DNA of 64,000 bases from an uncultured Planctomycetia bacterium. GTDB taxonomy: Bacteria; Omnitrophota; Gorgyraeia; Duberdicusellales; 4484-171. Made by a program: the position numbers and the translations under genes. Shown in pieces: positions 12,472-43,038 of this stretch. The stretch covers positions 20,788-84,787 of the forward strand of contig CAZVQU010000001.1 of the NCBI GenBank assembly GCA_964629655.1, given 5' to 3'. Numbering within the stretch: the stretch's first letter is position 1; each line of letters begins with the position of its first letter. The notes under the pieces are model-generated. The model made no database searches. It had not been told where the DNA came from and worked only from the letters and a program-made list of their open reading frames with translations.

Positions 12472-12482
12472 CCACCTTTTTA

Positions 12483-15042: not shown

Positions 15043-15112
15043 ACCGGGTAAATTTAACATTGCTACTTATTTCTCTTTTTAAACCATTCAAAAAAATATT
15101 TTTTTGAAGAGG
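15043..15112. repeat. 68-bp duplicated leader element, copy 2 (overlaps the 3' end of the polyferredoxin CDS, upstream of the SGNH gene)
   Basis: Same sequence with one substitution (RBS becomes AAGAGA) and a poly-T length change; it supplies the last 13 codons of 15063..16043. Confidence 0.8.
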
Positions 15113-20336: not shown

Positions 20337-21811
20337 ATTTTTTTCCTTATCTTTGCGCGTCCTTTATTTTTCAATCCGCCAATAGCCCCCTTGAGCAACA
20401 TCGAAAATAGCCATATAGATCCGTACAAAAGATTCTTAAAGGTAACTGTCCGTTTCAAAATATGACGGATAATAGCCTTTGGTTGCACATATACCTGAAA
20501 CATAGCTTTTCTCTGTAGGCGTCTGAGAGTGGCGCTATCTAATCCGTCAGGACAATAAACAAGATCGCCGCCAGCCGATGTCCAATCACACCAGCTGGTA
20601 AATTTCTCCGGTTCACCTATATCATTATTTTTAATGTAATCTTCAAAGAATTTAGACCCTGGATAAGGAACAGCTATGTTAAATTTTACTATATCGCATT
20701 CTAAATCCTTAGCAAATTTTATTGTATCATTGCAGGTATCCACAGTTTCTCCCGGAAGACCAAGCATAAACAAGCCCAAACTTAATATTCCCGCTTTTTT
20801 TGTTTCCCGCAAAGCCGTCCTCGCTTGATCCAATGTCGTTCCTTTATTAATGCTTTTAAGAATCTTCTCATTGCCAACTTCTATGCCATACATAATAAGA
20901 TGCAAACCTGCTTCTTTCATTGCTCTTAATAACTTTGGAGTTACTTTATCAACCCTTGTTTCTGTGCACCAGTTAAGTTTTTTATGTAGTTTGCGCTTTA
21001 TCAAGATATCGCAAAATTCTAATCCGGATTTCTCGTCAAAAGGGAAATAGGCATCGGATAGACCAAAATATTTTATATTAAGATTTTCAAAGAAATACTC
21101 CATTTCGTCAACAACCTTGTTTAAATTCCGATAGCGCATCTTGGGATATACCTTATCCTGTGAGCAATAATAACATTTGTAGGCGCAGCCTCGCGATGCC
21201 ATTATTGGTACTGCCCGGGCTTTAGTTATCGCTGCCAACGGAACTTCCCTGTAATCATCTAAATTTAGCATGTCCCAAGCGGGAAAGCTTAAACTATCAA
21301 GGTTCTCGATAATTTCACGCCGGGGATTGTGTCTTATTCCGTTTGCGGTACGGAAACTAATTCCAGATATCTCTTCTAAACTCCCGCCGTGGATAAGGCA
21401 AGTGCTCAGTTCCAGCATAGCGATCTCTCCCTCTCCCCTTACAACAATATCCGCTGTATTATCGCTAAGTACTTCTTCAGGAAAACAAGTAGCATGAGTG
21501 TTGCCTAACACAATTCTGCTATCGATCTTTGAGTCACGCATCTGCCGAACTAACCTTCTTATATCCGGCATAACCGGAGTAAGTGCGGAAAATCCCACTA
21601 TAACCGGTTTCTCCTTTTTAATTAAGTCTATAAGCTCATCGTCAGTAGTTTTTCTCGCGAACTGGTCGACAACCGAAACCTTTACGCCGTTACTTCGCAA
21701 GGTAGCGGCAATATAACATAAACCAAGTGGCGCAATAGGAGTGAGAAACTTTTTATATCCCCAGCTATTTTCTATTAAACTCGAATTAGGATTTATTAAA
21801 AGGACTTCCAT
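20333..21811 (-). CDS. B12-binding radical SAM protein
   Basis: 492 aa: B12-binding domain (RIVLGNTHATCFPEEVL...VVRGEGE) followed by RGCAYKCYYC, which fits CxxxCxxC. Confidence 0.8.
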   Translation of the reverse strand: MEVLLINPNSSLIENSWGYKKFLTPIAPLGLCYIAATLRSNGVKVSVVDQFARKTTDDELIDLIKKEKPVIVGFSALTPVMPDIRRLVRQMRDSKIDSRIVLGNTHATCFPEEVLSDNTADIVVRGEGEIAMLELSTCLIHGGSLEEISGISFRTANGIRHNPRREIIENLDSLSFPAWDMLNLDDYREVPLAAITKARAVPIMASRGCAYKCYYCSQDKVYPKMRYRNLNKVVDEMEYFFENLNIKYFGLSDAYFPFDEKSGLEFCDILIKRKLHKKLNWCTETRVDKVTPKLLRAMKEAGLHLIMYGIEVGNEKILKSINKGTTLDQARTALRETKKAGILSLGLFMLGLPGETVDTCNDTIKFAKDLECDIVKFNIAVPYPGSKFFEDYIKNNDIGEPEKFTSWCDWTSAGGDLVYCPDGLDSATLRRLQRKAMFQVYVQPKAIIRHILKRTVTFKNLLYGSIWLFSMLLKGAIGGLKNKGRAKIRKKI

Positions 21812-21820: not shown

Positions 21821-22876
21821 TTAAGCCTCTTCAAGAACTTTACTAACTTCCTTTAGCAAATATTCTTTCTTTTTTTCATCAATTGAAATTCTTTTATCAT
21901 CTACGTAAAATACATTTTTAGTAGTATAAATTCTTAATAACGATTTAATATGTTTTTCTCTTGAAAGTACTTTAAAAATCTCTTTGGGGTATAAGAAATG
22001 TAAATATTTAAAACTGTTTCTAATGACCGCTTCTGACAATAATCCTAATAAAATTCTAATAAGGGAAGAATACTTACTTTCTAATACTGAAGTGTTTATC
22101 AATCTAAGGCAATTTCCCTTACAGTTTTTCTGAGAATAAGCTGTCACACAATTGACAACCCACTGGGTAGGCTTGGTCCTGCCGGCTATTTTTAAAAAAT
22201 CAACGCCAAGTCTTTCGTATGTTTCTATTTTATTTGGATGGATAAAGCCGGTTCTTCTAACTATTGAAGAGGGGTCGTCTAATTTTAATTTTAAACATTT
22301 TACTATTTCTTTTCCAAAATAATCTGTCTTCTTGAGGTGTTCTTCTTCGTAAGGGCAATTCACTAAGCAAATGTTATTCGCCAGAATCTTTATCTGCAAT
22401 CCTGTCTTCTTTCTCAAAAGCTCAATGAAGTTAAGGTCGTTCTTCTTGCCATAATCTACGCAAAGGATGTCACAGCCTAGGTTCTTATAGAACATTGCTC
22501 TTTCAATAGAATCAATCCTGCAAGCAATGGAACTGCAGATTTTAAACCGATGATTTTTCTTTAAAAATGAAATTACATCCGGATTAGAAGCAGTTACCAT
22601 ATCTACGCTTATTCCACTGAGCTCTTTTAAAAAAGCAATCCTTCTTCCATCTAAGGTGAAGTTTGGATGGTTCATTATATAATTAAATTTAATACCCCGG
22701 GCATGGGAATATTCTATATATTTCTTCAATCTTTCCATACTAACCTTAGGCAAAGCATAAGAAGGCAAGACAGTCTCGCCGGGGTCGTGATTTAAACTGC
22801 CATATGTATCGTGGATTCTGCCTTTTAATCTGTCGATAAGTTCAAAATTGAAATTTGTAGGTGCTGATATCTGCAT
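21821..22876 (-). CDS. Paralog of 19158..20336 (U32-like, tentative)
   Basis: 351 aa; MQISAPTNFNFELIDRLKGRIHDTYGSL aligns with the N-terminus of the 19158 product. Confidence 0.3.
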   Translation of the reverse strand: MQISAPTNFNFELIDRLKGRIHDTYGSLNHDPGETVLPSYALPKVSMERLKKYIEYSHARGIKFNYIMNHPNFTLDGRRIAFLKELSGISVDMVTASNPDVISFLKKNHRFKICSSIACRIDSIERAMFYKNLGCDILCVDYGKKNDLNFIELLRKKTGLQIKILANNICLVNCPYEEEHLKKTDYFGKEIVKCLKLKLDDPSSIVRRTGFIHPNKIETYERLGVDFLKIAGRTKPTQWVVNCVTAYSQKNCKGNCLRLINTSVLESKYSSLIRILLGLLSEAVIRNSFKYLHFLYPKEIFKVLSREKHIKSLLRIYTTKNVFYVDDKRISIDEKKKEYLLKEVSKVLEEA

Positions 22877-22913: not shown

Positions 22914-24503
22914 TTATCCATCCAGCAATTTCTCTATACAACTTAGCACTTCTGTATTTTTTTCTTTCGCATAGTCTTTTTTCAACAATAGCCACCCGTC
23001 TTCAAAGGCAACAACGCCATAGCTATCCTGTATTATAGCATGTTTTAATTTCGAATAATACTTTGTTTCGCTTAAATTGTAATAAGAATGAGTATATAAA
23101 TCGACAAATATGTAATCCCATTCGTAGTATTTCTCTATAACATGTTTATCAAATAGCCCAAAATACTTGCACCTGCCTAAATGCGGTACCAAAAATTCTG
23201 GAGCTAGACAACTTGCCTGATCAGGAATCATTTTTAGAAACTTATGCCCAATCCGGGCATGTTTAGTTAACTTATAATCTTTGAAACTAAAGCCCTGGGT
23301 AAATGGTAAAGGCCCTAAGTTTTCAGAAAAATTACTTTTTGGCTGAACATAGTAATGCTGAAGCAAGACTGGGACCAAGATAAACGTGGCTAATAGATTA
23401 TGAAGTAACTTTCTGCTATTTTTATATTTAAAAAAAGCTTTATCTATAAAATCGATAATCCTTCCCGCCCCATATATGGCACCTGCAAAGACAAAAGCCA
23501 AGATTAAGAAATGTCCTGAGGAATGTTGGTTTCTAAGGAGAATATAGCCCGCCTCGGCAATAACTGGTAGAAGATACAGAGGGCTAAAGAAAACAAAGAT
23601 ATTAGGCAAACGAGAAAAAATGTAAATTAACATATTGCCCTCATTGAACATATTCTTCATAATCAATATGGGATGGAACAAGGCATATCGCAAAGCATCA
23701 ATTAGGCTATCTCCATACTGTACAAAATGGACCATGCCTACCGGAAAAGGCCTGTTAATTAGCTTAAGGTAAACAGAACATGCGGTTATTGCAATTATCA
23801 ACCAGATAAGGCTAATTTTTAATATCGCTTTTCCGTATCTTTTTCTCTCTTTAGAAAAAAGAAGAATTATACCTAAAACTAGAGTCATCAGCACAGCATC
23901 AATTTTAGATAGATTGGCCAAAATAATAAAAATAATGAATTTCTTAAAATCTCCCTTTTCGAGATAATAAAAAGCGAACAAGAGAAATGGTAAAGCTAAA
24001 GCAAGGGGTATGTATCCAAGCACTGCGCCTGTGGTTACGATTGGATGCAACAAATATGCAAGAGAGAATGTAACTGCCAGATAAGCACTATCCAGGCGTT
24101 TTTTTGTAAGTAGATACACGGGTAAAGCCCCGCTTGCTAAAAAAACGCTCTGAAAAACAAGCAATGCCTCCGGCCGGGGAAAAAGCCTATAAATAAAGGC
24201 AAGGAGGTAATTGAGGGGGGCAAAGAAATGAGAAACAGCTGGATATTCCGGCAGTATATACATTTCAGAAAAACTTCTAAATTCGGTTATCTTTAGATAC
24301 GCGTATGGATATGAATATCCAAAAGAATTAGCAGAAAAACTTCTAAATTTAAAAATATTGACAAAACCGAATGAAACAACAAAAATTGTAATCGCCATTA
24401 GAATAAAAATCAATAAATAATCTCTATTCCTATAACGGATTATACTGTTTATTCTGGAATCGGCTGGATGCTTAGATTCAGATTTTCCACACATTCCAAT
24501 CAT
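22914..24503 (-). CDS. Polytopic membrane protein (paralog B)
   Basis: 529 aa sharing the 1248-bp identical block with 16921..19161; the N- and C-termini are diverged. Confidence 0.5.
   Translation of the reverse strand: MIGMCGKSESKHPADSRINSIIRYRNRDYLLIFILMAITIFVVSFGFVNIFKFRSFSANSFGYSYPYAYLKITEFRSFSEMYILPEYPAVSHFFAPLNYLLAFIYRLFPRPEALLVFQSVFLASGALPVYLLTKKRLDSAYLAVTFSLAYLLHPIVTTGAVLGYIPLALALPFLLFAFYYLEKGDFKKFIIFIILANLSKIDAVLMTLVLGIILLFSKERKRYGKAILKISLIWLIIAITACSVYLKLINRPFPVGMVHFVQYGDSLIDALRYALFHPILIMKNMFNEGNMLIYIFSRLPNIFVFFSPLYLLPVIAEAGYILLRNQHSSGHFLILAFVFAGAIYGAGRIIDFIDKAFFKYKNSRKLLHNLLATFILVPVLLQHYYVQPKSNFSENLGPLPFTQGFSFKDYKLTKHARIGHKFLKMIPDQASCLAPEFLVPHLGRCKYFGLFDKHVIEKYYEWDYIFVDLYTHSYYNLSETKYYSKLKHAIIQDSYGVVAFEDGWLLLKKDYAKEKNTEVLSCIEKLLDG
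22971..24218. repeat. 1248-bp perfect direct repeat, copy B (inside CDS 22914..24503)
   Basis: See copy A. Confidence 0.9.
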
Positions 24504-24513
24504 TTTATTGCCT

Positions 24514-25317
24514 TCACTTTTTACTCAACAAATAATTATGGATAGTTTCTAGTTTATAATTATTTTTGTTACACCATGCTAAGTAATTACCTAAAATATT
24601 TAACATTTTGCGTCCAGTATTATATGTTAGGCTGCGAGGTAAATTAAAAATTGACTTATTGTCAATATCAGCAAAATCCCACGAATGAAAATAAATATTA
24701 GCATAATCTCCTGCTAGAAATACCCAAGATGTGCAAAATTTAGCATAATGTAGTCCAAATGTACGAAACCAAATCCATGAAAAAGGTAACTTTAAAATTG
24801 GGGCAACTGAGATAGGTACATTTATAATTCCATCTTTGAGCTTTATTCTCCTAGATTTGAAAAAATTACAATACCTGCCGGGGACATAGGTAGGGTGGCA
24901 GCTGTTGTCATACTCAAAACCCGCTTCATGCGTAACGGCGGAAGGCAAAATTACCAATTTATGATTTTTAAAACCATAAATTTTTGTTTTTAAATTATTC
25001 TCTACTTTTTCTTTAGCATATTTAATCGTCTCGATAGTTTGCTTAGTGTCACTGCTGTTTTTACGGCTTATACATCCATGAAGCCCTATTTCATGTCCCT
25101 CGGCAACCAATTGCTTTAATAAGTCAGGGTAAACTTCGGCTATTTTCTTAGTAACAAAAAAAGTCATTTTAATCTGCCGGCCCCTGATTAATGTAAGTAA
25201 CCTCTGCGCCCCATCGTAAGCCTTTTCCAGCATTAACTCATTCGGTATACTCTTTTTGAAATCCAACGGGAGATTAAACTCCTCAAAATCACACACTAAT
25301 GATAATATTTTCATCAT
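24514..25317 (-). CDS. Polysaccharide deacetylase (NodB homology / CE4)
   Basis: 267 aa: TFFVTKKIAEVYPDLLKQLVAEGHEIGLHG and later HSWDF, matching NodB motifs. Confidence 0.65.
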   Translation of the reverse strand: MMKILSLVCDFEEFNLPLDFKKSIPNELMLEKAYDGAQRLLTLIRGRQIKMTFFVTKKIAEVYPDLLKQLVAEGHEIGLHGCISRKNSSDTKQTIETIKYAKEKVENNLKTKIYGFKNHKLVILPSAVTHEAGFEYDNSCHPTYVPGRYCNFFKSRRIKLKDGIINVPISVAPILKLPFSWIWFRTFGLHYAKFCTSWVFLAGDYANIYFHSWDFADIDNKSIFNLPRSLTYNTGRKMLNILGNYLAWCNKNNYKLETIHNYLLSKK

Positions 25318-25417
25318 TTTTTAGTTCAATATTATATCTTGTAATTTCACTCAGCATATACATAGAAAAAATTGGAATCTAATAAATCGAAATTAGCCAA
25401 AGTATCTAATTCCTTCA

Positions 25418-26833
25418 CTATCTATTTTGTATATATCGCATCAATATAATCATTCCTTTAAAAAATTCTAAAAGCACTTTTACATTTGTGGATCTTCTCA
25501 AAAAGTTAATTACTATTCTGGGCCTAAAATAAAATTCTTTCAGCATTTTCTTGGCAGCATATAATAATTTTTCTTCATTTAAATGGGTAGAAGCAAACAT
25601 TGGAAAAGCACCATTAAATTTTTGCCAATCTTGGTAAAAATTGCCAACCTTTTTTATATTTTTATATATGGGTGATCCCGGATATGGAGTAAAGAAATTC
25701 ACTTTGATATTATCTAATTTGGTTTTTTTAATAAATACCATTGTCTCTTTAATCGTATCTTCTGTTTCAGAAGGGATCCCTATCATAAAATATCCCATAA
25801 TATTAAACCCAATCCTGCTCACTAAATTAATTGCTTCTTTAATTGTCTCTAGCTGGATACCCTTGTTCAAAATATTTAACATTCTCTGGGAACCACTTTC
25901 TATCCCGATGCAAATTTGCCAACAGCCTGCCTTTTTCATCTCTAAAAGAATATCTTTATCAATACTGTCTGCCCTGACCATGCAAACCCAGCTTACTTTC
26001 AATTTTTCATCTCTTATCATTTTACAAAATTGGAACATTCTCTCTTTAGAAAAAACGAAATCTGGATCATTAAACACAATCTCTCTGATATTATAATAAT
26101 GCTGCAGATGCTTTATTGAATCTATAATATAAGCTGGGCTATGAGATCTTACTTTTTTACCAGAAACAGTTTTACTGCAACAAAAAATACAATTCCCAAC
26201 ACATCCTCGCGAAGTTACAAGGTGAGCAACGGGAAACCTATGAAAACTTGATAAATTTGGAGCATAATGTGAAAAATCTGGCAGCAAATCCCATGCAGGC
26301 ATAGGTAGTGTATCTAATTCATCTATTAATGCAGGCGGTGAGGCAACAACCAAATTATTTTCTTCCCTGAATATAATTCCTTCAATTTTTCTTAAATCCA
26401 TCTTCTCTGCATGAGCTCGCAGCAAACGGACAATAGTCTTCTCTCCTTCCCCAATCACTCCTATATCAAAACCTTTAAAACGCTGCATTGTTATTTCCGG
26501 CAATGCGGATAAATGGACACCCCCGAGAATAATAACTATCCGGGAATTGTATTGTTTAATTGACATAGCTAATTCTCCTGCGCTAATAATAGAACAGGTA
26601 GTAGCAGTGATTCCGACATATTCTGGAGAATCAATCATAATTTGTTCCAATATCTTATTAATGCCTAAATGTAGGGCTGGCGCATCGATAATTTTAGTTT
26701 CAAAACCTGCTTGGCGAGTAACAGCTGCCAAATAACAAAGGTTATTAGGTTGCAATCCATGCAACACTCCTCCTAAAATACCGTATCTTTGATAAGAAGT
26801 TAGTGGCGGATTTATAAAAACTATTTTTGCCAT
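25418..26833 (-). CDS. B12-binding radical SAM protein
   Basis: 471 aa: B12-binding domain (VIILGGVHLSALPE...GVIGEGE) plus RGCVGNCIFC. Confidence 0.8.
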   Translation of the reverse strand: MAKIVFINPPLTSYQRYGILGGVLHGLQPNNLCYLAAVTRQAGFETKIIDAPALHLGINKILEQIMIDSPEYVGITATTCSIISAGELAMSIKQYNSRIVIILGGVHLSALPEITMQRFKGFDIGVIGEGEKTIVRLLRAHAEKMDLRKIEGIIFREENNLVVASPPALIDELDTLPMPAWDLLPDFSHYAPNLSSFHRFPVAHLVTSRGCVGNCIFCCSKTVSGKKVRSHSPAYIIDSIKHLQHYYNIREIVFNDPDFVFSKERMFQFCKMIRDEKLKVSWVCMVRADSIDKDILLEMKKAGCWQICIGIESGSQRMLNILNKGIQLETIKEAINLVSRIGFNIMGYFMIGIPSETEDTIKETMVFIKKTKLDNIKVNFFTPYPGSPIYKNIKKVGNFYQDWQKFNGAFPMFASTHLNEEKLLYAAKKMLKEFYFRPRIVINFLRRSTNVKVLLEFFKGMIILMRYIQNR

Positions 26834-26853
26834 ATATTTTTTCTTAATCGAAG

Positions 26854-28359
26854 CTAAATATATTTAAATAAAAGATTTTTAAATTTAATCTTCAATAGTC
26901 CCGTCATAAAGCAAACATAACGGATATAATATCTTTTTCGCGAGATGTCCAACCGGTCCTTTGTTAACATGGTAAGTGGAACCTCGATAACTGCCGGGCT
27001 AAACAAAGGTAAAAAACGGTATAGCTTTTTATTAATAAACCAATTATAAAACGTCGGAGGTAAAAAATGCAATATCAGCAATAGCCAATGGTACTTTATT
27101 TTATTTCTTGAATGAACCTCATTCTGCGATGTATTAGCCACCCTACAAGGATTTTTCTCTAACTTATTAATAAGCTTATTGGTCAAAATTCCTTCTTTAA
27201 GCCCTGAGTTAACAATTGGGGTTTTGGGAAAATATATCAACCAAAAAATACAAATTCTATTCGGCCTATTCTTATTGTAAAATTTCGCCATTTCTATTAA
27301 ATCCTTTTCGGTTTCTTGGGGCAATCCAATAATATTATCTACAACACAGCGAATTTTATATCTTTTGCATAAATTTATTGCCTCTCTTACTTGACTATTA
27401 TCATCTTTTCTATTGAGAATTTTCTCTCTTAAAAAGGGGCTTGTGCTTTGAACACCTAAGCATAACTGATAGCATTTGATATCTTTTAAACATCTCACTA
27501 CATTCTCGTTGATAGTACTTGGTGAGCCAAAACAATACATGGGCACATCTATATATTTTTTATACTCTTTGGAGAATTCTTTTAACCACTTTTCATTATA
27601 CGTAAAAAGATCGTCATTGATGCGTAAACGTTTAAAATTATATTTTTCTTTTGCCTGTTTTAGCTCTTGAATGGTGTTTTCTACACTCCTAAAACGCAAC
27701 TTCTTCTGGTTGGGGTAAAGTTTTTGCCATATGCTGTTATGACAATAGGCGCAGCTATTTATGCATCCTCTTCTTGTTATCATTGTGTAACCATTCTTGT
27801 ACCCTGGGATAACTTCATAATATAATTCTTTATCAGGAAACGGCAATATATCCAAATTCTCAATATACGGTCTCAATCGATTTTTAACAATTTGTCCGTC
27901 ACGCCTAAACCAGACATTCTTAATAGAGTAATCCAAACTTTTTTTCTCAAGACTCCTTGTTAATTCCAAAAGTGGATACTCTCCCTCCCCTATAATTACC
28001 GAATCTACGCAATCATTTCCTAGCACCTCTTCTGGCACAGAAGTAGGGTGAATACCGCCAAATGTAATATGGATCATGGGGAAATGCTGCTTAATCTTCT
28101 CGGCAACTCTCACTGCCCATATGTATTCGGAACTAACTACAGAAAAAGCTACTACATCCGGATGATAATCGATAATTTGTTTTAAAATAATCTTTTCGTA
28201 ATTAAAAAATTGACTGATGTACTTAATATTGATAAACGGGTCGTTAAATAGTTTAGGATCAAAAGCTAATCGGGTCGAATATCCATGCAGCTTTAAAACG
28301 GCTGATAGATATTCAATACCTAAATTCTCAAATGCACCATATACAAACATTATTTTCAT
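26854..28359 (-). CDS. B12-binding radical SAM protein
   Basis: 501 aa: HITFGGIHPTSVPEEVL...VIIGEGE plus RRGCINSCAYC. Confidence 0.8.
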   Translation of the reverse strand: MKIMFVYGAFENLGIEYLSAVLKLHGYSTRLAFDPKLFNDPFINIKYISQFFNYEKIILKQIIDYHPDVVAFSVVSSEYIWAVRVAEKIKQHFPMIHITFGGIHPTSVPEEVLGNDCVDSVIIGEGEYPLLELTRSLEKKSLDYSIKNVWFRRDGQIVKNRLRPYIENLDILPFPDKELYYEVIPGYKNGYTMITRRGCINSCAYCHNSIWQKLYPNQKKLRFRSVENTIQELKQAKEKYNFKRLRINDDLFTYNEKWLKEFSKEYKKYIDVPMYCFGSPSTINENVVRCLKDIKCYQLCLGVQSTSPFLREKILNRKDDNSQVREAINLCKRYKIRCVVDNIIGLPQETEKDLIEMAKFYNKNRPNRICIFWLIYFPKTPIVNSGLKEGILTNKLINKLEKNPCRVANTSQNEVHSRNKIKYHWLLLILHFLPPTFYNWFINKKLYRFLPLFSPAVIEVPLTMLTKDRLDISRKRYYIRYVCFMTGLLKIKFKNLLFKYI

Positions 28360-28367
28360 TTTTTAAA

Positions 28368-29789
28368 TCAGTTATTTTTTAAATCGCTTTTAACCCTGCA
28401 CAAACCAACGGCACTCTTTATATATCTCTTAAATTCACGAAAAGATTTTATGCCAAAACTAATCTTTGCCAAACGGGAAGGCCTGAAGTAGAATTTGCGA
28501 TAAGCTTCGATTGTGCAGCGTTCAATCGCTTTGTCAGAAACATCTGTCCAGGGAGTTGGAAGACGCTCTTCATCTGCTGTTCCTAAAATATACTCCTTCC
28601 AGTAATCTCTGCCTGTGATTTTCTTTACCGAGTCATACAAAACTGTTGTTGGCTTGGCTATAGTCTTATGAAATTGTGCATAGTCTAAATTTAGTTCCGA
28701 AGCAAAACTAATAGTATCTTTTATGGTATCCATGGTATCTCCCGGCGCACCTATAAGAAAAAAACCCAAAGTTAAAATTCGTTTCTTCTTGGTTAAACTG
28801 ACAATTTCTCTAATCCTCTCCAGCGTTATACCCTTGCTTGCATTATTCAAAATATTTTGATTCCCAGACTCTACGCCATAATAGATTCTGGCACAGCCCG
28901 CACTTTTCATCTCATTTAATAATTCTTCATCTATTTGATCAACTCTTGCCCTACAAGCCCAAGATACATCAATTCTTCTTTTTCTTATCGCTTTACAGAT
29001 CTCAATTATCCGTTTTTTGTCAAAAGTAAAAACGGGATCAAAAAATTCTATTTCGCGTATATTGAATTTTCTAAAACACTGCTCAATTTCATCAACAACA
29101 CCCTCTGCCTTCCTGGCAGAATAAGGTATGTTTTTCATGTGACAGAATTCACACTTACCTGGACAACCCTTGGAAGTAATCATTATCGTGAAGTTCTTTC
29201 TTTTAGACATAACTGTGTAATACTTATGATTAGGCAATAGCTGCCTGGCAGGAAAAGGCAAAGTGTCAAAATCTTCTTTTAATGTATCGGGAGGATTAAT
29301 AAAAATCTCTTCCCCGCGCTTATAGCAAATTCCTTTAATCTTGGCAATATCCATTTTTTGTTCTATTGCAAGCAATAACTCCGGAAGAGACTGCTGGGCA
29401 GAACCAATAATCCCGTACTCTATTTCTTTATGCATCATTACTTCTTTAGGGTAGAGTTCTAGCAAAACATTTCCTACAATAATTGTTAAATTTGTATGCT
29501 GTTTTAAAAACTTTATCCACTCTAAAGTCTGACGAAACATATACACCGTGAGCATAAAACCCAGCATATCCGGTTTAAAACTATTGATCCGTCTTAATAC
29601 CTGTTGTTTTGATAGTCTCGGTTGGCAATTAGCGTCTATTATTACTGCTTGATGCCCTGCTTTTTGAGCAATGGCAGCAGCATACGCTAACCCTAAAGGG
29701 GGAGGCTGTGTAAACTCTCTGCTTACAACATCTATATCTTCCTCAAACCTTTTGTGGTCAAAAGGGGGGAAAATAAAGGCAATTTTCAT
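28368..29789 (-). CDS. B12-binding radical SAM protein
   Basis: 473 aa: TIIVGNVLLELYPKEV plus SKGCPGKCEFC. Confidence 0.8.
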   Translation of the reverse strand: MKIAFIFPPFDHKRFEEDIDVVSREFTQPPPLGLAYAAAIAQKAGHQAVIIDANCQPRLSKQQVLRRINSFKPDMLGFMLTVYMFRQTLEWIKFLKQHTNLTIIVGNVLLELYPKEVMMHKEIEYGIIGSAQQSLPELLLAIEQKMDIAKIKGICYKRGEEIFINPPDTLKEDFDTLPFPARQLLPNHKYYTVMSKRKNFTIMITSKGCPGKCEFCHMKNIPYSARKAEGVVDEIEQCFRKFNIREIEFFDPVFTFDKKRIIEICKAIRKRRIDVSWACRARVDQIDEELLNEMKSAGCARIYYGVESGNQNILNNASKGITLERIREIVSLTKKKRILTLGFFLIGAPGDTMDTIKDTISFASELNLDYAQFHKTIAKPTTVLYDSVKKITGRDYWKEYILGTADEERLPTPWTDVSDKAIERCTIEAYRKFYFRPSRLAKISFGIKSFREFKRYIKSAVGLCRVKSDLKNN

Positions 29790-29796
29790 AATTTTG

Positions 29797-31362
29797 TCAA
29801 TTATTATACCATTTTGGCTTTTTCAGCCTCATAAATCCGGTAAGCCCTTTATGCTTCTCTCTTCCTAAAATGGTATCCCTAATTCCCAAAAACATCATTC
29901 TCAAAGTGTTTCTAAGAAACCACCAATAAAGTCCACGTTTATGCTTATAGGCAGAAAATAACCCCCTTATGAGCCAATGAGGACGATATAAAACATAGCG
30001 TTTATTGAGTTCTATATTCAAACTAACAAAATCCTCTTTAGATAAACCAGCAAGAGAATACATTGTGGGAGTAGACCAGTCATATTTTGTAAAGTCTTTT
30101 TCTTCCAAAAGATTATTTGCTTTAGCTTCCTGGTAAAGATAAGTACCGGGAACCGGAGCAACCGGATGAAAAGCAGGGTAGTCTACATCTATCTCCACAG
30201 CATACTTTACCAAATCCAACATTGATTCTCTAGTATCAAAGGACATGCAAGTGACAAATGTTCCCTGTCTAAACACCTGAGGATATCTTTTTTTAAAAAC
30301 CGCGAAAACTTCTTTTACTAAATCGCGGGTATATCCAGACTTATTAATTTGCTTAAAATCCTCAGAACAGACTCGCTCTATGCCAATTAAAGGATGCACT
30401 AATCCTGCTCGTACCATTTTTTCTAAAATTCCTAAACGTTCATCCCTCAAGGTAAAATCGGCACGTAAAAATGCCCACCAATGCAAGTCCTTATAATTTT
30501 TCTTAAGGAGTCTTTCACAAAATTCATCTGACCATTTCGGATCTACATTAAAAGTAGGATCGGCCCAAATTATGTAGCGCCTATTATATTTATGATAAAC
30601 AATATCTACTTCCTCCAACATCCTATCCACACTCTTACTTCTATATCTCGGATTCACTTCCAAATTCCCTTTCTCTATATCTACCTTAGCTTGGCTGCCC
30701 CAGAATGTCCAAAGAGAACAAAACTTACATCTATCTATACATCCGCGAGAATGTTCAAGGGTAACACTTTGTGGCCAAAGATATCCAAAAGGAGAATATT
30801 TACCCATTGGCATAAGATCATAAGCAGGAATTGGCAACTTATCTAAATCCTCAATTAATGGCCGTAGGGGAGTTGTAACTATCTCTCCATTATTTTTGTA
30901 AGCAATCCCTTTTACCCTAGATAGATCAATTTTATGTATAAAGGCGTCAATTAATTTTACTATTGTTTCTTCTCCTTCAAACCTTACAATAATATCAATT
31001 GGAAAGTTGGATAGGCTATAATCTACCATCCAAGAGAAAAAATGACCTCCTCCAATTGTAATCACCTTTGGATTTATTTTCTTAGCCAGTCTAAACAAAC
31101 TTGCTGCTTCGTGATGATAAAGAGCTTCTTCTCCAGCTCCTACCATATCCGGCTTCTCTTGCTGTAATATCTCCCCTAAAGTCCTCCATCCTATTTTCAA
31201 TGGAGGACAATCTATAATCTTTACCTCAACCGCAGGCAATTTCGCCCTTACAGCTGCGGCTATACAAGGTAAACCTAATGGCAAAAGAAAATTATCGGAT
31301 TCGTTTATAAAAGGCCAAATATACCGCGGAGGCCTTACCAATAACATCTTTTTTATCCTCAT
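29797..31362 (-). CDS. B12-binding radical SAM protein
   Basis: 521 aa: ITIGGGHFFSWMVD...VRFEGEE plus SRGCIDRCKFC. Confidence 0.8.
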   Translation of the reverse strand: MRIKKMLLVRPPRYIWPFINESDNFLLPLGLPCIAAAVRAKLPAVEVKIIDCPPLKIGWRTLGEILQQEKPDMVGAGEEALYHHEAASLFRLAKKINPKVITIGGGHFFSWMVDYSLSNFPIDIIVRFEGEETIVKLIDAFIHKIDLSRVKGIAYKNNGEIVTTPLRPLIEDLDKLPIPAYDLMPMGKYSPFGYLWPQSVTLEHSRGCIDRCKFCSLWTFWGSQAKVDIEKGNLEVNPRYRSKSVDRMLEEVDIVYHKYNRRYIIWADPTFNVDPKWSDEFCERLLKKNYKDLHWWAFLRADFTLRDERLGILEKMVRAGLVHPLIGIERVCSEDFKQINKSGYTRDLVKEVFAVFKKRYPQVFRQGTFVTCMSFDTRESMLDLVKYAVEIDVDYPAFHPVAPVPGTYLYQEAKANNLLEEKDFTKYDWSTPTMYSLAGLSKEDFVSLNIELNKRYVLYRPHWLIRGLFSAYKHKRGLYWWFLRNTLRMMFLGIRDTILGREKHKGLTGFMRLKKPKWYNN

Positions 31363-31587
31363 TTAAAATCCTATATTTGAAGCTGTTTTTTTGTATTGCA
31401 AAATAGCGGGTTTAGAAACCTAACCTTCACTCTAAGTATTATTTATAGCATACATCTACCAAAAACTCAAGCTCTATTGGGGTAAACAGGTGGGAAACTC
31501 TCGCATTCTTAGAGAAAAACTTTATAGGAAAAGTTGTAAAAGGTGATATAGAAACATAAGGATATTTGGAATGAATACTATTTCATA

Positions 31588-33111
31588 TCAATACGACTCA
31601 TTACCTCTGCTACCGACCGGATCAAAGCCAAAAAGCTCTTCCAGACGATCAGGAATTTTTTCAGTCAGAATCACTAAAGCAGTCATGGCTAACTTTAATT
31701 TTTCAATGAAAAGTTCACAGCTTCTCCGATGGGGAACGGCTAAATCATTATTAAAATAATAATTCACGTTAAGGCAAGAACCAGTGGTACGGCATACACT
31801 AAATAAATCGCAATCACAGCAAAAATTAAACCGTCTATCTATGGCTTTAATAAACGCGTCGTGCTTAAATTTATCAATTCCTTTATGGACATTACCTAGA
31901 CTAAACCGCTCTACGCCTAAAAAGGAAGTGCAAGGATATATATTCCCATCACCAGAAACAGCAATTTGCCCCGTAGCAGCAGGGCAGCCTCCACTTACCT
32001 CATGATTATAATATAGCTTCTGCATTAGTTTAAAGAATCTGTTGAAAAACGTTTTTCGGTAATCCAGAAAACCTTCTGTAACTTGATCAATGTAGAGCAA
32101 AGCAAGCCTTTCATACTCCTTAAACAACTTTTGATATTCCTGACCGGTTTTAAAAAAAATGTCTTCTCTCTGAGGAGTAATCTTATGGCAAGCATCCTCA
32201 CTCTCAAAAAGCTCTATTCTTTCAAACCCCAAATCACGTAAATTTTTATATAACGCTACCATATCCGAAAAAAAAGGCGTCACGGTGGTTCTACCCACTA
32301 ATCGTTTTTTTACGTAATCAGGCATGTTCTTAAGATTTTTCGCTATTGTGTCAAAGCTTCCTTTACGGTTTTCATAGGGCCTATTGTTATCATGAATATT
32401 CTTAGGGCCATCAATGCTTACAGCAATCTGAACTCCGCTATCAATCAAATCTTTAGCTATCGAAGGCTTAAGCAAAGTTCCATTTGTAGCCAAGAGAAAA
32501 TGAAAACTAACACCATGATCTTTTTCTTTTTGACGGCAATAACGCACTATCTCCTTGAGAACTTCTACTTTCTCTAATGGTTCACCTCCGTAAAAATCAA
32601 CAACCAGGCGTTTTTCATCTCCACATAATTTTAGCAAAAGGTCTACTGCTTTATGCGCTGTGCCCAAAGACATATCGCTTTCCTTTTGATCACCGCTTTT
32701 AACTGAAGAAGACGACTGTTCAAAGTCGGTATTAGAATACTTACCCTGGTCATTCCAGCAATAAATACATCTAAGATTACAACCTGAGGTTATATTTAAG
32801 GTTAAATCAGTAATGTAAGAAGAAACATCTCTATCTTCCCGTGATAAATCTTTTTCTCCCCTGGGAGGAAATAGATTGCTTATGTCAGGAGGGACGGAGC
32901 ATTTTCTGGCTAATTCATTTGCGATTTCTTGGGATAGACTTTGGCTCGTAGCGTTTATGGCATTATTCCACCTGCCCAAGGCATGATAAGCCTCAGGAGA
33001 AAGGTCGTAAAAATCTCCCTTTTCGGTAGAAACACCTATGTACTGTCCTAATCGTTTAAATAAATAAACCGGGGAAGAAACTTTTTTATTGGTTTTATCT
33101 AAAAAAGGCAT
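31588..33111 (-). CDS. Radical SAM protein with C-terminal SPASM/twitch domain (AnSME-like maturase family)
   Basis: 507 aa: TSGCNLRCIYCWND (CxxxCxxC), a GGEPL SAM-binding motif, and a C-terminal Cys-rich region (GGCPAATG...YPCTSF...FCCDCDLFSVC). Confidence 0.75.
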   Translation of the reverse strand: MPFLDKTNKKVSSPVYLFKRLGQYIGVSTEKGDFYDLSPEAYHALGRWNNAINATSQSLSQEIANELARKCSVPPDISNLFPPRGEKDLSREDRDVSSYITDLTLNITSGCNLRCIYCWNDQGKYSNTDFEQSSSSVKSGDQKESDMSLGTAHKAVDLLLKLCGDEKRLVVDFYGGEPLEKVEVLKEIVRYCRQKEKDHGVSFHFLLATNGTLLKPSIAKDLIDSGVQIAVSIDGPKNIHDNNRPYENRKGSFDTIAKNLKNMPDYVKKRLVGRTTVTPFFSDMVALYKNLRDLGFERIELFESEDACHKITPQREDIFFKTGQEYQKLFKEYERLALLYIDQVTEGFLDYRKTFFNRFFKLMQKLYYNHEVSGGCPAATGQIAVSGDGNIYPCTSFLGVERFSLGNVHKGIDKFKHDAFIKAIDRRFNFCCDCDLFSVCRTTGSCLNVNYYFNNDLAVPHRRSCELFIEKLKLAMTALVILTEKIPDRLEELFGFDPVGSRGNESY

Positions 33112-33365
33112 AATGAAAGGGATCTTCCTCTAGCGAAGTTATTCTCAATCAGTGGACAAAAATGCCTACCACAATACGCGCCCTGAACGGCAATACCGCG
33201 ATAGTTTCTTTTTACTCTTTTTTGCTTTGTTTATCTTTTTCGCACGCATTTTAATCTCCCCCTTCGTTTATCTTTTCGCACGCATTTTAACTTCCAAAAG
33301 ACACAAAACGTACTGCCTGTAGAATAACACAGCATTCACCTTTGTCAAGAAATACCTTCTGGTCA
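33112..33365. promoter_or_regulatory. 254-bp intergenic region upstream (in the minus-strand sense) of the rSAM-SPASM gene, carrying a near-perfect 25-26 bp direct repeat x2
   Basis: GTTTATCTTTTTCGCACGCATTTTAA at about 33228-33253 and GTTTATCTTTTCGCACGCATTTTAA at about 33266-33290. This is the largest non-coding gap in the cluster. Confidence 0.35.
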
Positions 33366-34217
33366 TTATCGTTTCCTTTTAGAATTCCATCGGAAAATTT
33401 TGCAGATAGAAGGCTTAATTAAATTAATAAAGACTATCCGCGGAATATCATAAACCAATAAAGGCAGCACTTTCAGTAAATACCTTTTAAAACCATCATT
33501 TTTAAAAATTGAATGGAGTCGATTATGAAAACAGAAGCATTGCCTCAATCTGTTAGGTGTGCCCGAACTATTACCTGCATGATAACAGTTTACTTCCGGG
33601 ATAAACAACGCCTTCCATCCTCTTTTTTGCGCCCGCCAGGCCAAATCCACATCCTCAACTAAAAAGAAAAATCGTTCGTCGAAATAACCGGTTTCCTCTT
33701 TTAACTCTTGCAGCATCTCCCTTTTATAAAAAGCACAAGCTGAGCAGGCACCAAAAATGCTCCTTGCCTCGTTAAATTCTCCACTACCCCTTCCTCTACC
33801 GATATCATAAAACCTCCGCATCCAGGAAAGATGTATTCCACAGGAATAAACAGTTCGATTACCAAAATTTAATATTTTTGGCTGTAATATTCCTGTATTA
33901 GAAGACAGATCGTCTATTATATTTACAGCCTTTACCAGAAAATCTTCTTCCAAAACCGCATCGCAATCTAAAGCCAATAACCACTCGCCCCTTGAGACGT
34001 CAATACCCTGATTCCTCGCTCTAGAAGCACCAAGATTTTTTCTGTTTTCAATTAAACTAACCTTGGGGTATTCTTTAACCACCTCAAGTGTGCCGTCACT
34101 TGAAGCATTATCAACAACAATTACCTCGAAATCCTGATAGTCTTGACGAAATACAGAATCCAGGCAAGGCCTGATGCAATCCTTGCTATTGTAGGTTAAA
34201 ACTACTATTGAAATCAT
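33366..34217 (-). CDS. Glycosyltransferase family 2
   Basis: 283 aa: MISIVVLTYNSKDCIRPCLDSV...VVDNASSDGT, the classical GT2 N-terminus with DxD. Confidence 0.8.
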   Translation of the reverse strand: MISIVVLTYNSKDCIRPCLDSVFRQDYQDFEVIVVDNASSDGTLEVVKEYPKVSLIENRKNLGASRARNQGIDVSRGEWLLALDCDAVLEEDFLVKAVNIIDDLSSNTGILQPKILNFGNRTVYSCGIHLSWMRRFYDIGRGRGSGEFNEARSIFGACSACAFYKREMLQELKEETGYFDERFFFLVEDVDLAWRAQKRGWKALFIPEVNCYHAGNSSGTPNRLRQCFCFHNRLHSIFKNDGFKRYLLKVLPLLVYDIPRIVFINLIKPSICKIFRWNSKRKR

Positions 34218-35280
34218 TTTCTAAAATGTTGGCGAATCTCTCTCCTAAAATGTCCAAAGAATAGGTTTCTTCTGCTGTTTTACGGGCGGCTATCCCCAGA
34301 TTTTTTGTTAAATCAGGGTTTTTTATAATCTGCTCCATGTTAAAAATAAATTCATTCCTGTCGGAGGCCAAAAAACCGTTGCATCCATTTTTAATTATAT
34401 GGTTTGCCTCCCCTACACAAGATGCAATTGTCGGCTTTGCTTTGGCCATATATTCAAATAATTTAACCGGGCTTTTCGACAAATTAAAACGTGTTTTATC
34501 TAAAAGAGGTATCAGACCACAATCTACACTATCCAAATAAAAAGGAATATCGTTGTAATCAACCCATCCTTTATAAATTAAATTCTTACAGTTATAACTC
34601 TTGATTAACTTAATCAATTCCCGGCCAAAAATTCCATCTGCGGCAATAAAAAGTTTAATAAAAGGATATTTTTCGTAGAGCGCCAAAAAACACTCTATTA
34701 TAAACTTTATATACCCTATTAATTCAATTCTGTTAACTGAGCCGTGCCAGGAGAATACAAAATCATCTCTTTTTTTACCAAAAAACGGCTTAAATTTACC
34801 GGTATCTACCGCTGTCGGGATATAGTAAACCTTTCGGTTGAACTGGGAGAGATAATCTTTCAGATAATTGCTTGCCGCAATACAAAGCCTACTGCTTTTA
34901 GCAAATAGACGACTGAGACACTCGGATCTTGAACCCCATCCCTCTCTTGCCTCCCAGTCATCCATATCAAATACAAAAGGGGTGTTTCTTAATTTAGCAA
35001 CGAGCCATGCCGGAATCGTATGGTAATTGAAGCGGTTTATTACAAAAACTGAGTTTTTTGCCTCTTTTAAGAATATTCTGAATCCTTTATACGAATATTT
35101 TAATTTCCTTCCAAAGGTAAACTTAGTCTCATCCTTTCCTGACTTTGCCCCCAATCTATCCACGAAAGAGAAAACAGATGAATTAAGGCCTTTTTTTTTA
35201 AGCTTCTCTGAAAACCCCCAGCAGCGTATCCTAGCTCCCGGGTCTTTACGGCCTTCCCGGGTTATAAATAAAAATTTCAT
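34186..35280 (-). CDS. Glycosyltransferase (GT-B, family 1/4-like)
   Basis: 364 aa; overall GT-B organisation with a C-terminal SKSPVKLFEYMAKAKPTIAS region resembling the GT1 sugar-donor domain. Confidence 0.5.
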   Translation of the reverse strand: MKFLFITREGRKDPGARIRCWGFSEKLKKKGLNSSVFSFVDRLGAKSGKDETKFTFGRKLKYSYKGFRIFLKEAKNSVFVINRFNYHTIPAWLVAKLRNTPFVFDMDDWEAREGWGSRSECLSRLFAKSSRLCIAASNYLKDYLSQFNRKVYYIPTAVDTGKFKPFFGKKRDDFVFSWHGSVNRIELIGYIKFIIECFLALYEKYPFIKLFIAADGIFGRELIKLIKSYNCKNLIYKGWVDYNDIPFYLDSVDCGLIPLLDKTRFNLSKSPVKLFEYMAKAKPTIASCVGEANHIIKNGCNGFLASDRNEFIFNMEQIIKNPDLTKNLGIAARKTAEETYSLDILGERFANILENDFNSSFNLQ

Positions 35281-36440
35281 TTTAATATTTTCTCATAAGC
35301 ACAAAGCAGAGAGTCAGCAGTGTAATTCCAGTTGTATTTTTCCTTAATCCTGGCTCTTGCGCCATTAGATAATCTTTCTCTTAAATCCGTATCCCTAATC
35401 AATCTTGAAATACCTTCAGCTAAAGAATGAAAATCTCCTTCCTTGGTCAAAACCGCACAACCGCCAGCCATACTCCGCACTTCCCCCACAAGGCTTGCAA
35501 CCACGGGCTTACCGCTTGCCAAATATTCCACGATTTTTAAGGGACTTTTGCAACAGCTAACCTTAGTTTCTTTAAACGGCGCAACACAAATATCAGCAGC
35601 AGCAATATAATAAGGTATATTTTTATGAGCAATAGCTCCAGTAAAAATGATTTTTTTTCTCAAGCCTAAATCAAAAGCTAGTTTCTTTAGCCTCTGTTCT
35701 AAAAACCCTTCTCCGACAATCATAAACAAAACATTTTGATGTTTACGGAGAACTCTACCCGCCGCTTTAATAAATAAATCGGCATATTGAGCTCCATGGA
35801 GCTGTCCTATATATAGTACCAGATCTCCCTTTATATTATACTTTTCCTTAATTCGGCTTCCGTCTAAGCCAGGCTTGAATTTCTCTAGATCCGCACCTAC
35901 CGGTGTCTCAAAAATAAAATCTTCTTTTACCCCGAATTTACGAGTTAATTTTTTTAAATAGCTGCTTGCGCAGGAAACAGAATCGGCTAAAACAGGAAGC
36001 CACCTTTCTAAAACCTTAAAAGAAATCCCTATAAACCTTGAATGCAAGCCTCTACCACAAGACTCATACCATATTTTTTCTTCCCAATCATCCCAATCGT
36101 AATGAAGCGGTTTTTTAGCAATATAGGCTGCGATTGCCGCAGGGACAGCCGCATAATGATGGCACTTCTGAAAATGAACTATATCCGCCCACCGGCATAA
36201 CTCTATAAGTTTTTTTGTATTTTTAATAATCGCAATAGGCGACGGCATCCTGTCTAATGGAATTAATTCTATGGTATCTACATTTTTAGATAAGTGTTTC
36301 TCGTCTAAAGCTAAAGGAAAGTAGCACAGCTTGACCTTGTGTCCCTTTTTTATAAATTCATTGGCAATACTTTTAATCCTTATAGTCCATGGTTCGGATT
36401 TATCAAATAAATCATGAGGATGAATCATTAAAATATCCAT
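35277..36440 (-). CDS. Glycosyltransferase family 4
   Basis: 387 aa with a C-terminal CKSPLKIVEYLASGKPVVAS motif typical of GT4. Confidence 0.7.
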   Translation of the reverse strand: MDILMIHPHDLFDKSEPWTIRIKSIANEFIKKGHKVKLCYFPLALDEKHLSKNVDTIELIPLDRMPSPIAIIKNTKKLIELCRWADIVHFQKCHHYAAVPAAIAAYIAKKPLHYDWDDWEEKIWYESCGRGLHSRFIGISFKVLERWLPVLADSVSCASSYLKKLTRKFGVKEDFIFETPVGADLEKFKPGLDGSRIKEKYNIKGDLVLYIGQLHGAQYADLFIKAAGRVLRKHQNVLFMIVGEGFLEQRLKKLAFDLGLRKKIIFTGAIAHKNIPYYIAAADICVAPFKETKVSCCKSPLKIVEYLASGKPVVASLVGEVRSMAGGCAVLTKEGDFHSLAEGISRLIRDTDLRERLSNGARARIKEKYNWNYTADSLLCAYEKILK

Positions 36441-36654
36441 ATATCAAGTACTCTCTAATCAGCTTGGATAATTTTCCTTAAACGGATAGGCTGGCCCTAT
36501 CCCGATGCGATAGACACTTTAAAGCAAAGAATTCTTATATCAGAAAACTCTTTAGACTACGGTTTAGGTATATTCTCAGGAGTAAAAAGGAAAAAAGAAC
36601 ACTACGCTTTTCTTCCTTTATGCTTTTTTAGATACTTTAAATATTAAATAGAAT

Positions 36655-41629: not shown

Positions 41630-41635
41630 TTTATA

Positions 41636-43033: not shown

Positions 43034-43038
43034 ATTTA

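Follow-up and report, generated by a model that had tools for sequence, protein, structure and literature searches.

Class B radical S-adenosylmethionine (rSAM) enzymes, which are cobalamin (B12)-binding, catalyse some of the most difficult transformations known in biology, and the majority are uncharacterised. The hopanoid side-chain pathway comprises a GT2 glycosyltransferase (HpnI), a deacetylase (HpnK) and a B12-rSAM enzyme for ring contraction (HpnJ). Aminoglycoside tailoring involves AprD4, GenK/GenD1 and BtrN, with a GT4 glycosyltransferase, a deacetylase and a DegT aminotransferase. In Escherichia coli O9a-type O-antigen export, the C-terminal domain of Wzt recognises a chain-terminating modification. 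Peptide-derived cofactor pathways include mycofactocin (MftA/B/C and the GT2 enzyme MftF), pyrroloquinoline quinone and the maturation of cysteine tryptophylquinone by QhpD. Here we describe an array of four B12-binding rSAM genes, A to D, in a window of 64,000 nucleotides (nt) from an uncultured bacterium of the Omnitrophota (NCBI GenBank assembly GCA_964629655.1, contig CAZVQU010000001.1, positions 20,788 to 84,787 of the forward strand), a phylum of which we know no pure cultures. Coordinates below are those of the window.

We suggest that the array encodes tailoring enzymes of an envelope glycoconjugate pathway, within a cluster of about 50 kb that is conserved in Omnitrophota, and we give this reading about an even chance. 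We infer both the class of substrate and every chemical step.

Results

By their sequences, genes D, C, B and A are an operon-like run of four anciently diverged class B rSAM genes in the interval 25418-31362. They lie on the minus strand, and the labels E, D, C, B and A follow the order of transcription. D (29797-31362, 521 amino acids (aa)) is the first array gene and is followed by C (28368-29789, 473 aa), B (26854-28359, 501 aa) and A (25418-26833, 471 aa), the last, with intergenic spacings of 7, 8 and 20 nt. Each protein has the class B (cobalamin-binding) architecture, an N-terminal Rossmann-type B12-binding domain and then an rSAM core, and both domains score above the Pfam gathering cut-offs (B12-binding, PF02310, E 1e-11 to 1e-17, 43.8-64.2 bits against a cut-off of 32.1; Radical_SAM, PF04055, E 3e-13 to 9e-21, 50.9-75.1 bits against 29.5). 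All four open reading frames (ORFs) are intact and retain both domains and one CxxxCxxC motif per protein (CVGNCIFC at 211 in A, CINSCAYC at 199 in B, CPGKCEFC at 209 in C and CIDRCKFC at 208 in D). The array enzymes may use cobalamin; AprD4, the closest solved relative of A and C, has such a domain but is not known to use cobalamin. An Rfam scan of the whole window returned no cobalamin or SAM riboswitch and only two tRNAs.

A preliminary description of the locus had given products of about 470-520 aa with a B12 domain and a CxxxCxxC motif and had called the sequences clearly diverged; the sizes and domains hold, the quoted motifs are exact, and pairwise identity among A-D is 26-33%. Its headline count of five consecutive B12-rSAM genes falls to the four that its own text listed, since the next rSAM gene, E (31588-33111, minus strand, 507 aa), is of the rSAM/SPASM type without a B12 domain. 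Gene F (20333-21811, minus strand, 492 aa), presented as a sixth gene upstream, is indeed a B12-rSAM by Pfam, but it is the fifth of this type and lies downstream in transcription. The placement of the array after the CE4 deacetylase and before the SPASM gene is likewise reversed, as transcription runs from the SPASM gene through the array to CE4. Its count of nine B12-rSAMs can be matched in the window only if the weak 6689-7990 protein, whose B12-binding match has 27.6 bits against the cut-off of 32.1, is added to A, B, C, D, F, 39593-41629 and the C-terminal halves of 37065-39596 and 46935-49325.

Because A-D are so dissimilar while each has its own orthologues elsewhere, they are old paralogues rather than a local expansion; they belong to separate orthologue lineages and occur elsewhere in other combinations. 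Among contigs from other genomes (here numbered with an L), orthologues of A in Omnitrophota are 71%, 59-61% and 53% identical to it, those of B 75% (L176) and 35% (L009), and those of C 83% (L176), 49% (L117) and 46% (L009). Orthologues of D form more than 120 clusters with 62-93% identity, almost all from Omnitrophota. Contig L009 has separate orthologues of A (53%), C and B. In contig L176, D (82%), C and B follow each other as in the window, a 302-aa rSAM gene occupies the slot of A, and beyond it come CE4 (64%), DUF2079, U32-like, F and U32-like genes in the order of the window, at 57-73% identity. The old tandem expansion proposed in the preliminary description therefore keeps its age, with 26-33% identity inside the window against 71% (A), 75% (B), 83% (C) and up to 93% (D) among orthologues, but not its tandem origin in place, against which stand the separate lineages, the D-C-B run with a 302-aa rSAM in L176, and the assignment of D to a family of its own.

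Homologues of A number more than 3300 at E <= 1e-20 and are spread across many anaerobic phyla. Members of the A family in other phyla are 43-45% identical to A, nearer to it than any paralogue in the window. Some members (660-745 aa; P0043, P0044, P0051 and others) have extra class I SAM methyltransferase domains (Pfam Methyltransf_11/12/25/31), which, judged by length, are an extension past the core of about 470 aa. Genes A, B and C are accessory enzymes that vary between genomes. D, unlike A-C, is a separate family conserved across the phylum.

For these class B rSAMs the term methylase is an assumption. The best partial NCBIfam matches are HpnJ for A and C, BchE for D and F, and ApyD for B. 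Scores for HpnJ (TIGR03471, cut-off 577.6 bits) were 219.7 (A), 170.6 (C), 106.7 (B) and 100.1 (D), and those for BchE (TIGR02026, cut-off 481 bits) were 192.6 (A), 182 (D), 145.5 (C) and 90.2 (B), all below the cut-offs. The B12-rSAM methyltransferase families compared with A-D (TsrM, PhpK, KedN5, HpnR, RiPP (ribosomally synthesised and post-translationally modified peptide) C-methyltransferases of TIGR03975, and the glutamine methylase of methyl-coenzyme M reductase) gave best scores of 27.7-142 bits against cut-offs of 282-700. The closest solved structure to A and C is AprD4 (PDB 6fd2; 95 bits for A, 99 bits for C), whereas B and D reach only about 30 bits, to OxsB and CysS. HpnJ, BchE and AprD4 are, as we take it, not methylases.

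The genes around the array are largely of glycan type. A soluble GT2 glycosyltransferase (33366-34217, 283 aa; Pfam Glycos_transf_2, E 8.5e-34) lies directly upstream of a peptide gene that is treated below, and is preceded by two GT4 glycosyltransferases (34186-35280 and 35277-36440; Glycos_transf_1, Glyco_trans_1_4). A CE4 polysaccharide deacetylase (24514-25317, 267 aa; Polysacc_deac_1) stands directly after A, and two Pfam DUF2079 membrane proteins lie at 22914-24503 and 16921-19161. Farther upstream are a Wzm-like ABC-2 permease (52752-53534; ABC2_membrane) and a Wzt-like ABC ATPase (within 49315-53534, 1146 aa; ABC_tran). All are on the minus strand, as is every substantial ORF from about 850 to 58700. 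The parts of a Wzm/Wzt glycan pathway that are present comprise the ABC-2 permease, the ATPase with a candidate cargo-binding extension and cytoplasmic glycosyltransferases.

Similar neighbours recur at orthologous loci. In four other contigs the neighbours of A orthologues include DegT aminotransferase, GT2, GT9, CE4, Wzy_C, DUF2079, PMT_2 and LPG_synthase_TM genes, together with a 610-633-aa protein homologous to a window protein with 13 predicted transmembrane (TM) segments (3704-5440, minus strand), whose homologues were found by BLAST beside A orthologues in L007, L009, L011 and L012. CE4 genes also occur near A or D orthologues in L011, L177 and L179, and orthologues of the GT2 gene (54-63% identity) adjoin E or its second subfamily, E2, in L141, L137, L139, L140, L145 and L176, and an A orthologue in L007. 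Across a survey of 80 species-level A-family loci, 36 have a GT2 homologue. The preliminary description had proposed methylation of different positions or sugars. The carbohydrate half of that proposal agrees with this context (GT2, two GT4, CE4, DUF2079/PMT_2-type and Wzm/Wzt genes in the window, and DegT, GT2, GT9, CE4, Wzy_C and DUF2079 beside A orthologues), while the methylation half lacks a methyltransferase family above cut-off and has HpnJ, BchE and AprD4 as its best partial matches.

The Wzt-like ATPase carries four copies of a domain of about 200 aa, here called the beta-domain, which is homologous to parts of two rSAM proteins in the window, 41636-43033 (31% identity, E 3e-22) and 46935-49325. 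Pfam gave no match to this domain, and an exhaustive profile search found it in only 623 cluster representatives. In 55 sampled proteins its partners were ABC_tran (14), Radical_SAM (7, five with SPASM and one with B12) and PMT_2/PMT (6-8). The AlphaFold model is all-beta, with a mean predicted local distance difference test score (pLDDT) of 65.5 and 80-94 in the N-terminal half. The best PDB folds are all supersandwich domains of enzymes that act on carbohydrates (GH97 SusB, a galactosaminidase, LacZ and galactose mutarotase), at E 1.6e-3 or worse. A classical Wzt carbohydrate-binding domain was considered and rejected, as there was no Pfam match and no Wzt domain among the fold matches. The distribution and modelled fold would fit a module for the recognition of a shared substrate, probably a carbohydrate. 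As a candidate substrate-recognition module, the beta-domain could serve to identify the cargo.

Discussion

In the glycoconjugate pathway that we favour, the GT2 and GT4 enzymes would build sugars on a carrier in the cytoplasm, and CE4 would strip N-acetyl groups. Each B12-rSAM paralogue would then perform one radical tailoring step on the sugar or the sugar carrier, which could be a C-methylation or a rearrangement, dehydration or oxidation of the HpnJ, AprD4 or BchE type. A Wzm/Wzt-type exporter would move the product out, and GT-C-type membrane enzymes would act outside the membrane. That A-C tailor sugars of an envelope glycoconjugate is our best reading of these three genes. The pathway as a whole is supported by the domains, motifs and close spacing of the four genes, by their separate orthologue lineages, by the sugar-modifying AprD4 as the closest solved relative of A and C, by the glycan-type neighbours in the window and at A orthologues, by the A-family survey (GT2 homologue in 36 of 80 loci, at least two B12-rSAMs in 39, E or D in none), by the beta-domain shared between exporter and rSAMs, and by the conservation of D with its two recurrent couplings.

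Several observations weigh against this pathway. None of A-D or E reaches an NCBIfam cut-off, and curated families thus give no chemistry. The fold matches of the beta-domain all have E values above 1e-3, and its model is of moderate quality (pLDDT 65.5). Among the scanned window ORFs, nearly all of at least 120 aa, there is no priming glycosyltransferase of the WecA/WbaP type; the related locus L177 has one. A B12-rSAM gene stands beside a polytopic membrane-protein gene in 16 of 48 distant A-family loci, about 1.7 times a rough expectation, which is a weak enrichment. Moreover, synteny among related Omnitrophota may partly reflect shared ancestry, not function. Finally, the block of peptide gene, E and D fits a RiPP substrate, at least for D, and the polyprenyl synthase/UbiA context of D elsewhere fits a lipid or a prenylated small molecule.

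The peptide gene concerned is unannotated. It occupies 33166-33249 of the minus strand, inside a gap of 254 nt before E, and encodes 27 aa, MRAKKINKAKKSKKKLSRYCRSGRVLW, ending in ...LSRYCRSGRVLW; a strong ribosome-binding site, AAGGGGGAG, stands 7 nt before the ATG. The peptide precedes E orthologues (at least 49% identity) in 48 of 49 metagenome loci, the exception having no upstream sequence, and its end is invariant there (...LSR[YF]CRSGRVLW stop). In 46 of the 48 the ORF lies 9-156 nt upstream of E, and in L139 and L140 its end overlaps the beginning of the E alignment by about 27 nt. For the last 12 codons, 45 distinct DNA versions use as many as six synonymous codons at one position and differ in protein sequence by Y/F alone. 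This conservation upstream of E, with a single replacement over so many DNA versions, indicates that the ORF is under selection as a coding sequence. The peptide matches no Pfam or NCBIfam family, and no paper on it was found. No convincing precursor ORF was present in the gaps 31363-31587 or 36441-36654, and no peptide-like ORF in the D-only loci L177-L179 or the A loci L007, L009, L011 and L012.

A promoter-like site (33321-33348, minus strand; TTGACA, 16 nt, TG-TATTCT) lies upstream of the peptide gene. It is one of four 10/12 minus-strand matches in 24300-37200 and the sole one with a TG extension, but it is a consensus match only, and the total number of sites is not above shuffle expectation. 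The first 25 nt of the peptide gene including the ATG (TTAAAATGCGTGCGAAAA[A]GATAAAC) occur in two copies about 37 nt apart (33230-33300, minus strand); the upstream copy has one A fewer and reads MRAKR-stop. The doubled start could be a partial duplication or a slippage-prone run of A.

E has Pfam Radical_SAM and Fer4_12 domains and a SPASM-type C-terminus. Its best NCBIfam match is PapB (228 bits, cut-off 340), followed by QhpD and the SCIFF maturase, all below cut-off. It resembles CteB (PDB 5wgg) in sequence (E 1.8e-40) and over its full length in predicted fold (E 2.8e-28, TM 0.72/0.82). In the model (pLDDT 81), residues 15-78 fold with confidence (pLDDT about 90) into a beta-beta-beta-alpha-alpha-alpha domain that is RRE-like. 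E is predicted to be a peptide-maturase-like protein with a peptide-recognition (RRE) domain. E2, with 37-42% identity to E, comes with a separate Arg-rich peptide, M[IV]RLLNRR...YRAAFCRCGRVLW, ending in ...FCRCGRVLW. In the E2 loci (L145-L155, L166, L176) the E2-type gene usually overlaps or abuts the start of a D orthologue.

D follows E-type genes directly in 15 of 43 informative loci. It lies at most 300 nt after E in 8 of the 32 main-type (E1) loci with enough downstream sequence, and after E2 in 7 of 11, at spacings of -88 to +7 nt. D is 72-78% identical in loci whose E is only 57-62% identical. Often next after D are F, two U32-like genes, a PMT_2-like gene and a C-like gene; F with the U32 pair follows D in L119, L141, L153, L154, L155 and L178, and D belongs to a conserved core with these three. 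The U32 family includes the oxygen-independent hydroxylases UbiU and UbiV, and two divergent members flank F in the window (21821-22876 and 19158-20336, minus strand, both by Pfam, the latter matching U32 structure 5d88 at E 1e-12); many loci of Omnitrophota show this trio again behind D. D also occurs apart from E and the peptide, in L177, L178 and L179-181. In L177 and L179-181 it overlaps by 4 nt the gene of a 395-398-aa rSAM, itself after UbiA and, in L179-181, also after a polyprenyl synthase, with GT2 and PMT_2 genes flanking; in L178 it starts an alternating run of B12-rSAM and PMT_2 genes. Given its coupling to the peptide and RRE-SPASM maturase in one set of genomes and to polyprenyl synthase, UbiA and an rSAM in another, the substrate of D may be a peptide or a lipid-linked intermediate rather than a glycan.

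These data bear on a RiPP pathway for the whole array, which we consider unlikely. Here the peptide ending in ...LSRYCRSGRVLW would be the substrate, E would cross-link it, most likely through a thioether from the one Cys that never varies, and methylation or another modification would follow by D and perhaps by C, B, A and F; glycosyltransferases would then decorate it and the ABC transporter would export it. The almost purely synonymous variation of a peptide gene directly upstream of E argues for such a pathway, as do the RRE-like domain and CteB-like fold of E and the position of D after E-type genes, where the E2 spacing points to translational coupling. In addition, a GT2 gene adjoins the peptide gene on its upstream side in L141, L145, L176 and the window, and the best NCBIfam match of 37065-39596 and 39593-41629 is the RiPP C-methyltransferase TIGR03975, under cut-off. 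However, in 19 of 31 loci of at least 10 kb, E and the peptide have no B12-rSAM homologue within 10 kb, as in L093, where they stand alone among housekeeping genes. D occurs without either, no such peptide was seen beside A in the four A loci named above, and 225 nt separate E from D in the window. An invariant core behind a variable Lys-rich N-terminus is also unlike typical antibiotic RiPPs. The preliminary description held that a phylogeny placing the enzymes with peptide-modifying ones, and the discovery of a precursor peptide, would redirect the hypothesis toward a RiPP. This applies in part: the peptide and the RRE-SPASM-like E stand directly upstream of the array, and D is syntenic with them in many genomes, but A is not, as none of the 80 A-family loci carries E or D.

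In a further reading, which we regard as doubtful, the cluster would make a new type of ribosomal peptide product found throughout the phylum. E would cross-link the invariant [YF]CR[SC]GRVLW end, further changes would come from D, F and the two U32-type proteins, glycosyltransferases would add sugars for A-C to tailor, and Wzm/Wzt with its new recognition domain would handle the product. The result would be a peptide-anchored envelope glycoconjugate or an anaerobic peptide-derived quinone-like cofactor.

Lipid tailoring is similarly improbable. B12-rSAMs, with SPASM and other rSAMs, would methylate, cyclise or bridge membrane-lipid or polyprenyl chains, in parallel to GrsA/B, Hgm, Hbs, Tes/Mss and ladderane-type clusters. 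Tetraether lipids are modified by B12-rSAM and SPASM enzymes, and homologues of Mss and Hbs exist in some Omnitrophota (10.1101/2023.10.20.563219; PMC11868695), for which ladderane-type cluster calls have also been made (PMC9902471). The position of D after polyprenyl synthase, UbiA and the overlapping rSAM speaks for lipids, as do the LPG_synthase_TM genes that adjoin A orthologues and, in the window, GDSL-lipase-like genes and a double-cubane reductase with its activator ATPase. Scores of 54-126 bits were obtained with TIGR04072, an NCBIfam model for B12-rSAMs of lipid biosynthesis, but its cut-off is 360, and these scores are also lower than those for HpnJ and BchE. The window has no genes for fatty-acid, isoprenoid or glycerolipid synthesis, and the main neighbours are glycosyltransferases, CE4 and Wzm/Wzt. 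Moreover, UbiA and polyprenyl synthase flanked by GT2 and PMT_2 fit the synthesis of a polyprenyl-phosphate sugar donor equally well.

Within 10 kb of the A-family gene, at least two B12-rSAMs occur in 39 of the 80 surveyed loci, at least three in 20 and at least four in 9; such arrays are common in uncultured anaerobes, and adjacency alone is therefore weak evidence of a shared pathway. An assembly of chance neighbours or decayed duplicates without joint function is nevertheless extremely improbable and already contradicted by conservation, with four intact ORFs, retained motifs and domains, orthologues of 71-93% identity, gene order shared with L176 and spacings of 7-20 nt.

The cluster that surrounds the array is about 50 kb long, on one strand, with at least 13 rSAM domains. 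Upstream in transcription order come a flavoprotein, the Wzm-like permease, the Wzt-like ATPase, five rSAM proteins, a 136-aa protein, the two GT4 and the GT2; downstream come CE4, DUF2079, U32-like, F, U32-like, DUF2079, a NapH-like ferredoxin, the double-cubane reductase with activator, polytopic proteins (one PMT_2) and a GT4. The five upstream rSAM proteins (37065-49325, minus strand) were typed by Pfam, NCBIfam, motif scan and domain sharing. The first in transcription, 46935-49325, joins a beta-domain to an HpnJ-like B12-rSAM. The second, 43039-46938, is a single protein of 1299 aa built from three complete rSAM/SPASM modules (CxxxCxxC at 36, 553 and 963), whose best NCBIfam matches are tungsten-cofactor maturase and AhbD types, all under cut-off. 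Next, 41636-43033 (465 aa) combines a beta-domain with a partial, degenerate rSAM core without CxxxCxxC, and may be a non-catalytic, substrate-binding paralogue. Protein 39593-41629 (678 aa) is a B12-rSAM whose C-terminal 280 aa repeat a B12-like domain, and in 37065-39596 (843 aa) an N-terminal rSAM/SPASM is joined to a C-terminal B12-rSAM, with a TM helix at the C-terminus. The 136-aa protein (36655-37065, minus strand) is anchored or secreted, matches no family and was not seen in other loci.

Farther downstream in the co-directional run (11677-13709 and 15063-16043, minus strand) are a double-cubane-cluster reductase (247 bits, cut-off 350) with its activator ATPase of the BcrAD/BadFG type, and a membrane polyferredoxin like NapH/MauN. 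They could be a source of low-potential electrons for the rSAM enzymes. Three DUF3108-like domains occur (8030-8761, 10949-11677 and the C-terminus of 16921-19161, fused to DUF2079), with a homologue in L009 and L153. The weak B12-like rSAM (6689-7990, minus strand) lies among GT-C-like polytopic proteins on the same strand, at 1935-3629 (PMT_2 by Pfam), 3704-5440 and 9254-10930. A pairing of one GT-C-like membrane protein per B12-rSAM, of which the window has five each, was considered and dropped as a firm claim, adjacency in distant A-family loci being weak. Housekeeping genes at 55783-57382 (SmpB, tRNA-Ser(CGA), tRNA-Leu(CAG) and an inositol-monophosphatase family gene) begin just past the cluster and place its upstream limit at about 54.9 kb.

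Arrays of B12-rSAM genes are common among uncultured anaerobes and not new in themselves. As far as searched, the density of rSAM domains in a Wzm/Wzt glycan-type cluster is new, as are the beta-domain common to exporter, rSAM and GT-C proteins and the combination of an invariant peptide, a maturase and a phylum-wide conserved B12-rSAM. We found no paper on DUF2079, the peptide motif or arrays of B12-rSAMs in glycan clusters of Omnitrophota; rSAMs are mentioned, in other contexts, in work on nitrogenase-paralogue clusters of Elusimicrobia and on the giant proteins of Omnitrophota. Should sugars be the substrates of A-C, the cluster would represent unusually dense radical tailoring of a surface polymer in bacteria. 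A small and directly testable set is formed by the peptide, E and D, with a short peptide of invariant core and a D that has 65-93% identity across Omnitrophota.

Comparison with known systems

With RRE-SPASM RiPP systems (CteB/SCIFF, PapB ranthipeptides and QhpD, some with B12-rSAM C-methyltransferases) the locus shares the order of precursor peptide, RRE-SPASM rSAM and B12-rSAM, and E is CteB-like in sequence and predicted fold. It differs in that E falls under all curated cut-offs and that the peptide, which belongs to no described family, has a single Cys, or two in the second subfamily, and an unvarying C-terminal core that ends in Trp. Being Lys/Arg-rich and conserved across phyla, the peptide is more like cofactor precursors than antibiotics. 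The peptide-derived cofactor pathways also share with the locus a C-terminal core that does not vary and ends in an aromatic residue, as well as a SPASM maturase and a GT2 beside it; QhpD is the second-best NCBIfam match of E, and MftF a weak match of GT2. This likeness is purely an analogy, as no cut-off is reached and the locus has no equivalent of MftB, MftD or MftE and no dehydrogenase partner.

Aminoglycoside tailoring has a similar mixture of GT4, deacetylase and SPASM- and B12-type rSAMs, with DegT in related loci here and AprD4 closest to A and C. However, the AprD4 scores are only 95-99 bits, and genes for 2-deoxy-scyllo-inosose or an aminocyclitol are absent here; GT-C enzymes and Wzm/Wzt point to an envelope polymer, not a secreted small molecule. 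The hopanoid side-chain pathway likewise applies a GT2, a de-N-acetylase and a B12-rSAM to a carrier-attached sugar, and HpnJ is the best NCBIfam match of A, C and 46935-49325. In contrast to that pathway, HpnJ scores here are 171-244 bits against 578, the deacetylase is CE4 rather than of the HpnK type, there are no hopanoid genes, and five to nine B12-rSAMs stand in place of one.

The export part of the cluster is closest to Wzm/Wzt O-antigen systems, with an ABC-2 permease and an ATPase whose large C-terminal extension probably binds the cargo. Unlike in those systems, the extension consists of four copies of a domain of about 200 aa without a Pfam or Wzt fold match, and the same domain is fused to rSAM and PMT_2 enzymes.

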